Origin: Campylobacterota bacterium
GTDB lineage: Bacteria; Babelota; Babeliae; Babelales; RVW-14
Assembly (NCBI GenBank): GCA_020633995.1
Contig: JACKCO010000004.1
Location: 90,928-154,927, forward strand
Direction: 5' to 3'
Length of the DNA stretch: 64,000 bases
In this document: positions 20,704 through 23,733 of the stretch, one piece after another
Layout of the letters: each line of letters starts with the position of its first letter
How positions within the stretch are numbered: the stretch's first letter is position 1
Position numbers and translations under genes: made by a program
The notes under the pieces: generated by a model
Databases searched by the model: none
Told to the model about the DNA's origin: nothing
The model's input: the letters and a program-made list of their open reading frames with translations, nothing else

Positions 20704-23700
20704 ATGATGTCGTTTGTGGGTAAAAAATTTCTATTATTTTCATCGTTATGCTGTTTTTTGTTTAGTTCATTATTTGCGGGTGAGATAAAGTTTACACTGG
20801 TGTCAAACAACGTGTTGCACCAAACGCCTTTACAAAATTATGGGAAAGGTGTTACACATCTGTTGTCGGGGGTGCTGAGTGAAACTTCAAGACTTAGCTA
20901 TATTGATTCTTATCAGGACAAATTTAAAGAAGCTCAAATCGTTTGTTTGCAAGAAGATCAAGGGGGAACGTTTTCTGGCAAAATACAATCGCTAAAGCCT
21001 GGTGTATTTCAGTTAATTAAGCAAAATCCGAATGCAGATGTAGCAATCATTTATGATAAGACTGTTTTTGAGATTGTTGGTGAAGTCAGCTATGGTTTTG
21101 CATCAAGCGGTTTTAATGAAGGACCTTATGTGCTTGTTACGCTTAGGCATAAAGTAACTGGTAAACAAGTTGCAGTTATTAATACTCATTTGAAAGGTGG
21201 CCCTGGGTATTCTGGTCAAGCGAATAGCTACGTGAAGTTACGTATAGATCAGATAAACACGATTAAAACTAAGATTCCTTCAGATATGCCGACAGTATTG
21301 TGTGGAGATTTTAATCTTAATGCAAGCCCTGCTCAATATGATGAGTTCATGCAGGCTACGCAGCTTTCAATATTAGGATTTTCTAATGTTGATGAGAAGT
21401 TACAGACGCCTTCATGTACGGTAAGAGTTTCTCCGGTGAAAGACCCTACTGATCAGCCACAGCGTCTTGATTATATCTTTTACAAAGGCATGCAAAAAGA
21501 AGAAGGTAGTTTTACAACATTTCCTACCTTCGATCAATTGATTAGTCACAAAACAGCATTTCAGCATTATGGGTATCATTCTGATCATGCTATCATGAAA
21601 GTTACGTTTTCTATAGATCTGCCAGCAGCGGGAACAACGGGAACCACCGAAAGTTTTAATGATCCCAATAATTACTATGCTGTGTTAGGTATACCAAATG
21701 ATTCTTCTAAAGATACTATAAGAAAAGCCTATAAAAAGCTTTCTGTGAAATATCATCCTGACAAGCATAAAGATGAAAGTGAAAAGTATACAGAAATATT
21801 TAAGATCATCAAAAATGCCTATGACAAGCTTATAGAAGCAATAGAAAACCCAAAAAATGTTGATCATGGCAAGCAATCTCCACCGCAGCCAACAGGACAG
21901 GGGGCAGCGTTGGTTTTTAACATTGTTTCGCATAACGTTTTGTCTCAGCAACGTTATGATTCTTATTTTCAAGAGTGGCGTTATGTGAGCGGGTGGTTTG
22001 GTTCACCGTTGCAAAGTTATTGGCAGCAGGTAGCCAATCCTCCGGTTAGCCAAAAGGAGAGATTAGGCTTACTTAACCGCTATCACTCTGCGAGATTTTC
22101 TTCGGCAGATATTATATGTTTGCAGGATGATGATAATCAATATTTTGCGGAAAATATTAATTATTCGCCCCAAACCTTTGCTTATGTAGGTAACAATAAA
22201 AAGTTGGTTGTACTTAATAAGACAAATGTATTTGATCTTATTAATTCTATAGCATACGACTTGGATGGTGAGTTTGAGTCACTCTATTGTCTTTTTCAGC
22301 ATAAGGCAACAGGTCATAGACTTGGGGTTTTAAATATTCTAGTTAGCACGCTCAACAAACATTTAGTGGGTAGCTATGTAAATCAGATACTATACTATCT
22401 ACAACATTGGCTAGTGCAAAGTCACAGTATTATTGTTTGTGGTGATTTTGGTGTGCATGCAAATCAGGCTTCATTTAATTGGAAGAACGCGGAAGCAGCC
22501 TTACTTTCGAAGCAGTATACTTTTTGTGTGAATGGTAATTTTGCATTTAAATCATTTTTCAACAACAAACCATTACAAGCAGAGCCATATGAGCAATGGG
22601 TTGATCATGTATGCTGCAAGGGTTTAGCGCAGGAAGGTTTTAGTATGGTTCCTCTTCCTAACTCTTTGATAAGGCTTCCATATTTTTATTGGGATGGTGT
22701 AAAGTATGAGAAAACATGGAGTAATCGCGATGTCATCCTCGAGAATATTAAGCATCATTCTGATCATGCTATTGTGAGTGCTAGGTTTAGTTTTCCGAAG
22801 TCCTCAGCTCAACAGTCAGGGTCTTGGTCATCACCAGGGGGAGCTAGTTCGCCTCCACCATCATCAGCAAAACCAAAGAGCTCGAGCCCCCCTCCAAAAA
22901 GTAGTTCAGCTTCGGCCAAAGGAGCTGCCGCTTCATCAAAATCGGGCGCAGCTCAACTTTCTCCAGCGACGAGCCTTTTGCAGGTTATGAAGCTTAAGAT
23001 GCTCAAGTTAATGTCAACTGTTGCTCTTCCATCATCAGCGTCAGGTGCTGGCTCAGGAGCGAGTTCTTTTAAAAAAGAGACTCGGGATGAAAAAGCTAAG
23101 TATATGCATACGATTCTTAACAATGTTTTGGTTATTGTTGTTGAAAATGACATTACAAAGTTTAGTTTTGACAACTGGCAGAAAGCTGCAATTGTCAATG
23201 CAGCAAATACGGGGCTACAAGGAGGTGGCGGCGTCGACGGTGCAATTCATAAGGCGGCAGGGCAATATCCGGATCCTAAAGACACCAAAAAATTTAAATC
23301 TAAATTAGCTGCAGCTGGCAAGTTTGATGTTGGAGGTAGTGAGGTTAGTAGTGGCAAGACAGGTGAGGCGTACATTTCTGACGCATGTGATCTTGGTACG
23401 GGTCAAAAGGAAGTGGCGCAATATGTTATTCATGCGATTGGGCCCATGGGTGAAGATCCTGTTGCTTTAAAATCTGCCTACACACGATCACTCCAGCTTG
23501 CTCAGCAAAAGGGATTGACTGAAATTTGTTTTCCGGGTATTAGCACAGGTATCTTTGGGTACTCCGTTGAAAAGGCGACGCCCGTTGCGTTGGATGCTAT
23601 AGATGCATTTTTAAGGGCGAATAAAACAACCACATTGCGTAGAATTTATTTGATAGCACAAAAAGGTGAGCAGGCGTGGATTAATGCATTTAAAAAGGCG

Positions 23701-23733
23701 CTTAGTGCTCATGGGTCCTTTAGCCTGACTTAG
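20704..23733 (+). CDS. secreted multidomain protein: EEP domain - J domain - degenerate EEP domain - Ser/Pro/Ala linker - macro domain
   Basis: SD GGAG 6 nt upstream of the ATG at 20704. Signal peptide [29 protein letters not shown]1 ~20783-21612 (CLQE, NTHL, GDFN, SDH). J domain ~21673-21845 (YYAVLGI...KYHPDK, HPD at 21754-21762). EEP2 ~21907-22794 (CLQD, GDFG, SDH). Low-complexity linker ~22795-23070. Macro domain ~23100-23733 (IVNAAN...[29 protein letters not shown]). Confidence 0.85.
   Translation: [1009 protein letters not shown]

Follow-up and report, generated by a model that had tools for sequence, protein, structure and literature searches.

A gene at positions 20704–23733 of a 64,000-nt stretch of bacterial DNA (GenBank assembly GCA_020633995.1, contig JACKCO010000004.1, positions 90,928 to 154,927; hereafter, the window) encodes a protein in which a putative signal peptide precedes two domains of the endonuclease/exonuclease/phosphatase (EEP) fold, a J domain between them, and a C-terminal macro domain. 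All four domain types are already known, and so are mosaic secreted effectors as a kind. New here are the architecture, which is unique among the searched proteins, an apparently exported EEP family with a characteristic helix, a suggested link between EEP and macro domains, and a J domain with a Sec-type leader in the Dependentiae. With moderate confidence, we interpret the protein as a Sec-exported, Hsp70-tethered effector that would erase host signals derived from ADP-ribose or NAD, mobilize adenine nucleotides, or both.

For the J module, a mechanistic precedent is HopI1, a type III effector of Pseudomonas syringae that interacts directly with host Hsp70 and changes its location (PMC8982422). 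Like the protein described here, HopI1 contains a canonical J domain with the HPD tripeptide (C-terminal in HopI1) and is delivered outside of the bacterial cytoplasm. However, it travels through a type III secretion system, has no Sec leader, contains a P/Q-repeat region and lacks EEP and macro domains; the comparison concerns the J domain only. For the macro domain, the closest described cases are Larg1 (Lpg0081) and MavL, Legionella ADP-ribosylhydrolases of the macro type that are injected into the protist or macrophage host, where they reverse the ADP-ribosylation of ADP/ATP translocases or ubiquitin (PMC9191684, PMC10989772, PMC11668277). In contrast to our protein, these are single-domain Dot/Icm substrates, each paired with a cognate bacterial ADP-ribosyltransferase, and the macro domain studied here is closest to housekeeping structures of the MacroD/YmdB type. 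No ADP-ribosyltransferase gene was seen within the 64-kb window. A precedent for the overall layout is provided by the Legionella mosaic effectors of the SdeA type, which join deubiquitinase, phosphodiesterase, mono-ADP-ribosyltransferase and coiled-coil regions and thus carry several domains of NAD/ADP-ribose chemistry, a phosphodiesterase included, on one secreted polypeptide (PMC8120803). SdeA shares with our protein the large size, the secretion (predicted for ours), the presence of several catalytic domains and a phosphodiesterase; however, none of the folds correspond, as this phosphodiesterase is not an EEP domain, the ADP-ribosyltransferase is not a macro domain, a J domain is missing, and the secretion route is different.

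The closest characterized enzymes for the first EEP domain (EEP1) are PDE12, Nocturnin, ANGEL2 and CNOT6L, which are its best profile and structure matches and share with it the SxN, CLQE, NTH, GDFN, LDY and SDH motifs. Among these CCR4-like enzymes, Nocturnin is an NADP(H) 2'-phosphatase (bioRxiv 10.1101/534560), and ANGEL2 is a 2',3'-cyclic phosphatase (PMC9525292). The similarity to EEP1 is distant, with 14–18% identity in structure alignments and a single-sequence E-value of 7e-5, and, unlike these enzymes, the EEP1 family is bacterial, predicted to be exported, and has a C-terminal helix of its own.

The organism is labelled 'Epsilonproteobacteria/Campylobacterota bacterium' at NCBI, a label that appears to be misassigned. 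The elongation factor G of the window (fusA, 26560–28635) is 75–81% identical to proteins of named Candidatus Babeliales, Candidatus Dependentiae and candidate division TM6, and no Campylobacterota were found among its 120 best matches. Therefore, we place the organism in the Dependentiae/TM6. Even the elongation factor Tu of the window is a singleton when proteins are clustered at 90% identity, indicating that the lineage is poorly sampled. The Dependentiae are widespread but almost unstudied obligate parasites of protists, and their cultivated members are intracellular. A likely intracellular lifestyle, proposed from the sequence by the initial annotation, agrees with this placement and with the observation that cells of the cultivated C. 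destructans enter the host cytoplasm (PMC6561590). We found no functionally characterized Dependentiae effector in the literature searched.

The gene, its leader and its domains

The features of the locus, with positions in the window, are as follows.

20704–23733, + strand: complete gene; ATG at 20704, TAG at 23731–23733, 1009 codons plus TAG
20694–20697, + strand: Shine-Dalgarno-like GGAG with a 6-nt spacer to the ATG, read directly in the sequence
20704–20778, + strand: putative Sec-type signal peptide (aa 1–25, followed by GE), from hydrophobicity and N-terminal positive charges
20782–21618, + strand: EEP1 (aa 27–305), PF03372, catalytically complete by motif
21664–21858, + strand: J domain (aa ~321–385), Pfam PF00226; HPD at aa 351–353, DNA 21754–21762
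21904–22800, + strand: EEP2 (aa ~401–699), paralogous to EEP1, its active site partly degenerate (LQDD, GDFG)
22801–22956, + strand: S/P/A/K-rich low-complexity spacer (aa 700–751), from the translation
22957–23022, + strand: K/L-rich helix module (aa 752–773), which also forms the C-terminus of stand-alone family members
23119–23730, + strand: MacroD-type macro domain (aa 806–1009) with intact ADP-ribose-binding and catalytic motifs
23736–24008, + strand: relic of a third EEP (its C-terminal third) with helix and stop, in another frame and without start codon

The gene is a genuine, intact open reading frame. It is uninterrupted over 3,030 nt in DNA of 40% GC and is preceded by a ribosome-binding site. 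The open frame as such, 20683–23733 on the + strand, extends upstream to a TTG at 20683; the start at 20704 is favored because the GGAG precedes this ATG. The product of 1009 aa is identical to NCBI MCB9493333.1 ('MAG: macro domain-containing protein', MAG being metagenome-assembled genome), encoded on a MAG contig of 541,903 bp. Codon usage correlates well with that of the neighboring housekeeping genes (r = 0.85), and the GC content at third codon positions (GC3) is uniform from domain to domain, which speaks against a recent horizontal gain of the macro module. The signal-peptide-bearing frame that the initial annotation had placed at these positions was thus found intact, with the leader judged by eye and by hydropathy, and all of the EEP, J and macro motifs quoted there were located in the translation. 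The domains follow each other in the order putative signal peptide, EEP1, J domain, EEP2, S/P-rich spacer, K/L-rich helix and MacroD-type macro domain.

The sole strongly hydrophobic segment of the protein comprises aa ~9–25. On inspection, the leader consists of KK, a 17-residue hydrophobic core and LFA, with G following, and, as judged by eye, homologues with a complete N-terminus carry a comparable hydrophobic leader. Because the only hydrophobic stretch is N-terminal and lies behind two lysines, the bulk of the protein should be outside the cytoplasm, although the leader may instead act as a signal anchor. By analogy with cultivated relatives, export might well continue past the periplasm. 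In C. destructans, signal peptides are present on 44% of the coding sequences and on 78% of the ankyrin proteins, outer-membrane vesicles were seen, and the host nucleus is degraded (PMC6561590). In addition, the seven TM6 genomes that were compared in PMC4776705 share a type II secretion system in which gspD is present twice. These data suggest that a Sec leader is the normal mark of host-directed proteins in the Dependentiae.

The J domain is recognized by Pfam (PF00226, aa 323–377) with an E-value of 3.7e-16 and 59.4 bits, far above the curated cut-off of 27.8. It contains the HPD tripeptide and a basic helix II, aligns with the J domains of DnaJ and DNAJB proteins, and matches the J domains of DNAJB8, DNAJA1 and E. 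coli DnaJ in the PDB with E-values of 1e-10 to 1e-8. Thus, the complete J domain noted at the outset was verified. G/F, zinc-finger and C-terminal DnaJ regions were not found, and TIGR02349 reached 54 bits versus a cut-off of 377, with the J segment alone aligning; by sequence, the protein belongs to class III (J-only). Two proteins among the closest J-domain relatives, P0048 and P0069, begin with classical signal peptides and have similar layouts. P0048 (341 aa; 8001–9026 on contig L026) combines a signal peptide with a C-terminal J domain that is 55% identical to the one described here, and its contig, which is bacterial, also encodes a 587-aa ankyrin-repeat protein, a large tetratricopeptide-repeat protein and several ORFans. 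P0048 may stand for a family of J proteins that are exported by host-associated bacteria.

The support for the macro domain is stronger still in terms of score (Pfam Macro, aa 831–962, E = 2.7e-22, 79.4 bits versus a curated cut-off of 22). It aligns end to end with MacroD-type structures, namely DR_2288 (2.9e-22), Oceanobacillus iheyensis MacroD (OiMacroD; 3.4e-20) and human MacroD1 (1.8e-19). The NAAN... and ISTGIFGY loops correspond column for column to those of OiMacroD and DR_2288, and both MacroD signatures, the Nx6GG[VLI]D(G)xxH loop and the phosphate-binding G[IV][YF]G loop, are present. The assignment to the MacroD type with intact ADP-ribose motifs, made initially from the letters alone, is borne out by these matches. 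The NCBIfam equivalogs for YmdB/O-acetyl-ADP-ribose deacetylase gave at best 102.5 bits, below their cut-off of 200, and we classify the domain by its sequence as MacroD-like rather than as an orthologue of the housekeeping enzyme.

For EEP1, Pfam Exo_endo_phos (PF03372) matched aa 110–275 with E = 6.4e-10 and 39.6 bits (curated cut-off 24.5). In an alignment of 14 sequences, EEP1 retains all 10 of the 10 catalytic or conserved positions checked, in line with the earlier statement that this domain has all hallmark motifs. In the structural model of EEP1 (predicted local distance difference test score, pLDDT, 65; predicted template-modelling score, pTM, 0.75), the best Foldseek match is Nocturnin (1.3e-12), followed by PDE12, TDP2, ANGEL2 and CNOT6L. 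Judging from these residues, EEP1 is expected to be catalytically active as an Mg2+-dependent phosphoesterase. EEP2 had been described as a second domain of the same kind. The domain is real: it is paralogous to EEP1 over its full length (BLASTP 7e-17, 25% identity), and its model (pLDDT 59, pTM 0.70) matches the folds of Nocturnin, TDP2 and ANGEL2, although Pfam gave no match. Its active site, on the other hand, is partly degenerate, with the metal-binding Glu changed to Asp, the Thr of NTH to Lys, and the Asn of GDxN to Gly. Because of these outlier residues, the activity of EEP2 is probably impaired.

The low-complexity linker probably biased the word-indexed search with the full-length protein, and aa 1–722 (EEP1-J-EEP2) were therefore used as the query for phmmer. 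In this exhaustive search against 1.84 billion representatives, only the protein itself scored above 76 bits, and the remaining matches were J-only or EEP-only. The full-length word-indexed search of 5.8 billion proteins returned the self-match and one weak, macro-only match (a PARP14 macro domain). In a review of bacterial ADP-ribosylation systems, exonuclease-type and DnaJ domains are not mentioned, and the sole phosphodiesterase covered there is that of SdeA, which is unrelated (PMC8120803). With regard to anti-phage defense, the PADLOC models gave no family at E <= 0.01. The earlier impression that no described protein combines EEP, J and macro domains has thus been extended to the searched databases, in which no second such protein was found.

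The EEP family and its branch

The relatives of EEP1 form a small family that comprises P0015, P0026, P0031, P0037, P0056, P0143, P0158, P0159 and the C-terminus of P0011, with 24–30% identity to EEP1 over the domain. Its members share a common layout of a leader (where the N-terminus is complete) followed by the motifs VSCNVL, ICLQE[YW], NTH[LF]xGG, ICGD[FL]N, LDYI[FL]Y and FSDH, and most of them end in a short K/L-rich helix, for example LSTALSLLKAKLLSLVKALT. This family of signal peptide, EEP and helix is tiny, undescribed and uncharacterized. Among the EEP-type matches that were checked with Pfam, none contains a J or macro domain; they have a single EEP, alone or with unrelated extensions. 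One such case is the mosaic P0011 (933 aa), which begins with a signal peptide, continues with a long coiled-coil-like region rich in E/K/Q and ~300 aa of unassigned sequence, and ends in a family EEP, the sole part recognized by Pfam. A profile scan of genome contigs revealed remote EEPs in Bacteroidales, Oscillospiraceae and Alphaproteobacteria, with no closer ones among the matches listed. The metagenome scan yielded one true family member (at locus L011) and four remote EEPs, and in the viral scan remote EEPs alone were found, in giant-virus MAGs.

A gene of the family next to a macro gene was found on a metagenomic contig (L002, 5880–7896). There, a signal-peptide MacroD-like gene (249 aa, − strand) is divergent to a signal-peptide gene of the EEP family (P0143), at a distance of ~110 bp, and a Sel1-repeat protein also adjoins the pair. 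The MacroD-like protein is 27% identical to the macro domain of the fusion (pairwise E = 7e-14). The start of P0143 had been called too late; the true start, with the leader, is at about 6740. By a rough post hoc estimate, which assumes one or two macro genes in a genome of roughly 1,200 genes, the chance of such an adjacency in one of about six loci is ~1–2%. This adjacency, together with the fusion, suggests that EEP and macro domains are functionally linked. In both L002 and L027, a 263-aa gene lies downstream of the EEP; these genes had also been considered as a conserved partner but are not homologous to each other.

The branch of the superfamily to which the EEPs belong matters for the substrate. 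With the family profile, the best characterized matches were PDE12 (1e-13), Nocturnin (3e-12), beta-hemolysin (4e-12), ANGEL2 (1e-10), the sphingomyelinase (SMase) of B. cereus (4e-10), Ccr4 (2e-9) and human neutral SMase nSMase2 (7e-9), before a drop to TDP2 (7e-5). The family thus lies between CCR4-like nucleotide phosphoesterases on one side and neutral SMases on the other. The subfamily of EEP1, which the initial annotation had left to be determined, is narrowed but not fixed by these results: CCR4-like enzymes rank first by sequence, profile and structure, SMases are nearly equal in the profile search, and 5-phosphatases do not appear. Specifically, no 5-phosphatase structure was found at E <= 0.01 in the profile search, so that a pairing like that of auxilin and synaptojanin (an inositol 5-phosphatase EEP with a J domain) was discarded. 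From these comparisons, we lean towards the CCR4-like side of the CCR4-like/neutral-SMase part of the superfamily and, with it, towards adenylate-type phosphoester substrates.

The main alternative, which we consider rather unlikely, retains the exported effector but regards the EEPs as lipid phosphodiesterases resembling neutral SMases. The helix would then place them on host membranes, and their cleavage of sphingomyelin or lysophospholipids there would serve to remodel membranes or to harvest lipids, with the J and macro domains acting independently. Apart from the close profile scores of the three SMases, this is consistent with the conserved hydrophobic and basic C-terminal helix, which suggests membrane association, and with C. 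destructans, for which there is no evidence of lipid biosynthesis and which causes disarray of host membranes (PMC6561590). The only NCBIfam match of EEP1 is likewise a sphingomyelin phosphodiesterase, the bacterial sphingomyelinase C family TIGR03395; however, the alignment is partial, with 27.5 bits versus a cut-off of 248.2. Furthermore, the alignments with Ccr4 and PDE12 begin at the N-terminal SxN motif, whereas those with SMases are restricted to the C-terminal two thirds; SMases are absent from the top 50 Foldseek matches of the EEP1 and EEP2 models alike; and, after the family members, the best proteins of the 5.8-billion database are eukaryotic Angel homologues. A role in lipid cleavage would also leave the recurrent link to macro domains unexplained.

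Origin of the gene in a variable slot

The window is a housekeeping region, with yidC, bamD, an lptD-like gene, pepP, pyrG, rplM, lpxC, the gene described here, rseP (− strand) and the str, S10, spc and alpha operons. In relatives with the same gene order, lpxC and rseP are separated by 3 bp (L008) or 57 bp (L017), or overlap (L016). Because nothing lies between the two genes in these three syntenic relatives, the variable slot has received the gene by an insertion specific to this lineage, and the product is not a conserved housekeeping enzyme. This also bears on the concern, raised with the initial annotation, that the N-terminus might be the membrane anchor of a periplasmic housekeeping enzyme: the gene is missing from relatives that share its flanks, which speaks against a housekeeping role, although the leader may still be a signal anchor. 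In a further relative (L009, 3660–5585, − strand), the slot is filled by a 641-aa signal-peptide ORFan without a Pfam domain; it was compared as a possible positional orthologue and proved unrelated. It seems that the lpxC-rseP slot is a hotspot at which lineages carry exported proteins of their own. Upstream of it, in the segment 19235–19752, rplM (encoding L13) is not followed by rpsI, and a strong terminator-like hairpin (19696–19721) precedes lpxC; the L13-LpxC order is common to the related Dependentiae contigs L008 and L017.

Traces of rearrangement are visible in the slot itself. Right after the stop codon, another frame (23736–24005) reads ...IDYIFYWGE...FYSDHCALKAVFEF...LSPVNQLLQLMKLKHLKLMTAIIGKA and ends in a stop that adjoins the end of rseP (24009). 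In this relic, IDYIFYWG and YSDHCALKAVFEF match EEP1 (33% identity over 54 aa), and LSPVNQLLQLMKLKHLKLMT matches the helix inside the gene, the two helices being 64% identical in amino acids and 77% in nucleotides. The internal helix also resembles the C-termini of P0031, P0037 and P0015 and has a modest hydrophobic moment of 0.24. The SDH motifs are spaced at 1179 nt from EEP1 to EEP2 and at 1118 nt from EEP2 to the relic. The S/P/A-rich linker proposed earlier is therefore only part of the segment between EEP2 and the macro domain. An S/P/A/K-rich spacer is indeed present, which the relic and the stand-alone family members lack between SDH motif and helix; however, the linker is composite, and a conserved helix module follows, with an S/G/A spacer between it and the macro domain. 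A read-through or frameshift from the main frame into the relic was considered and rejected, since the frame of the relic opens just 10 nt before the stop, a slippery site is absent, and one third of an EEP domain would not fold.

The relic is a record of recent domain shuffling at this locus. We infer, as the simplest history, that tandem units of signal peptide, EEP and helix fused in the lpxC-rseP slot, that a J domain was inserted after EEP1, and that the macro module displaced most of a third EEP unit, leaving the original 3' end behind as the relic.

Several observations weigh against the reading of the protein as a functioning effector. It is a singleton, and no independent assembly containing it was found, its protein cluster being sourced from NCBI only. 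Because it has no orthologue, there is no evidence of purifying selection. Since the closest relatives lack the gene and a decayed paralogue adjoins it, the mosaic could be young, and it could possibly be non-functional. EEP2 is the single outlier of the 14 aligned sequences at three conserved positions. At the other loci of the EEP family (L001, L003, L004, L011 and L027/L028), no macro neighbor was found, which leaves L002 as the only such case in about seven stand-alone loci. Finally, the SMases are near-tied with PDE12 and Nocturnin in the profile search, beta-hemolysin within one order of magnitude, so that the assignment to an EEP branch is not decisive.

Some of these points would also fit a non-functional recent fusion, or an artefact of assembly or sequencing, or else a J domain that acts on cytoplasmic DnaK to keep the 1009-aa precursor export-competent. 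In addition to the lack of any second copy and the degeneration of EEP2, the decayed relic directly downstream and the nucleotide identity of the helix copies point to a recent rearrangement. However, the frame is open over its entire length and has a ribosome-binding site, every catalytic or binding motif is kept in three domains, neither codon usage nor GC3 shifts along the gene, the relatives have collinear flanks, with no chimeric join visible, and real multidomain effectors typically have in-frame linkers of low complexity. We therefore regard such explanations as improbable. Even as an ephemeral mosaic, the gene would document the assembly of effectors through the shuffling of domains within a variable slot.

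Proposed function and neighboring genes

For the effector that we favor, we propose the following mechanism. After export by the Sec pathway, the protein would most likely be released to the host via the type II secretion system or outer-membrane vesicles. We know of no bacterial DnaK/Hsp70 and no ATP that would be available to a J domain beyond the bacterial cytoplasm, and this leaves host Hsp70 as its only plausible partner. By analogy with HopI1, the HPD-containing J domain would dock on ATP-bound host Hsp70/Hsc70, trigger its ATPase and tether the effector to the chaperone or its clients. The macro domain, like Larg1 and MavL, would bind and remove ADP-ribose at mono-ADP-ribosylated acidic residues, at ADP-ribosylated nucleic-acid ends or in O-acetyl-ADP-ribose. 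EEP1 would hydrolyze an adenylate-type phosphoester, such as the 2'-phosphate of NADP(H), oligo(A) in 2'-5' or 3'-5' linkage, or a 2',3'-cyclic phosphate. EEP2, in which the Asn of GDxN is lost and the metal-binding Glu is changed, would probably act as a substrate-binding or regulatory pseudo-enzyme, and the K/L-rich helix would be a family-specific module for targeting or association. As a net effect, host stress and defense signalling derived from ADP-ribose or NAD would be erased, adenine nucleotides would be freed for a nucleotide-auxotrophic parasite, or both. We infer the cooperation between the domains as well as all of the substrates, including that of EEP1. If host Hsp70 is indeed hijacked, the exported J domain would be a Sec-exported analogue of HopI1. 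The EEP-MacroD fusion and the neighborhood on L002 could point to a new class of ADP-ribose/NAD substrates and to an ADP-ribosylation defense of protists.

A periplasmic or surface enzyme of nutrient salvage, which would convert host NAD(P), ADP-ribose derivatives and RNA to importable nucleosides or nucleotides and in which the J domain would be vestigial, is hard to reconcile with the intact HPD and basic helix II, with the lack of the gene in the closest relatives of the same lifestyle, with the existence of other signal-peptide J proteins in similar bacteria, which argues for selection on exported J domains, and with established knowledge of Hsp70, according to which the periplasm offers a J domain no known partner or ATP; we thus give it little credence, even though a Sec leader by itself guarantees periplasmic delivery only, adenine nucleotides or RNA ends are the substrates of all of the closest characterized EEPs, and the Dependentiae secrete many hydrolases and rely on imported nucleosides, C. 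destructans requiring nucleoside import (PMC6561590).

As an extension of the effector proposed above, an exported EEP and MacroD pair might be a two-enzyme module that dismantles a host molecule containing ADP-ribose in two steps, one carried out by the phosphoesterase and one by the ADP-ribosylhydrolase, and that is coupled to host Hsp70 by the J domain in cis. Conceivable targets would be an ADP-ribosylated RNA or DNA end, a signal of the 2'-phospho- or cyclic ADP-ribose type, or a nucleotide messenger like those of oligoadenylate synthetase or Toll/interleukin-1 receptor (TIR) systems. This extension is a long shot, but, if true, it would define a new class of effectors against nucleotide-based immunity in protists.

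The remainder of the window offers some further observations. Although the str, S10, spc and alpha operons are spanned, no Rfam family, ribosomal-protein leaders included, reached the gathering score over the whole 64 kb. Downstream of mdh, at 46411–59655, there are five large ORFs on the + strand (1382, 636, 678, 347 and 1311 aa) that are essentially without Pfam matches, the last one showing weak YukD-like and DUF948 matches below the threshold used for the stretch; these are candidates for further surface or effector proteins specific to the lineage. In the 1311-aa ORF, codon usage is atypical (r = 0.42, GC3 0.45), and a 758-aa antisense ORF (56332–58608) is present as well, which suggests a compositional or repeat bias. 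An 809-aa ORF at 13012–15441 has no Pfam match at 1e-5, and its positional orthologues in L008, L009 and L016 show weak matches to LptD_2; it is probably a divergent LptD.

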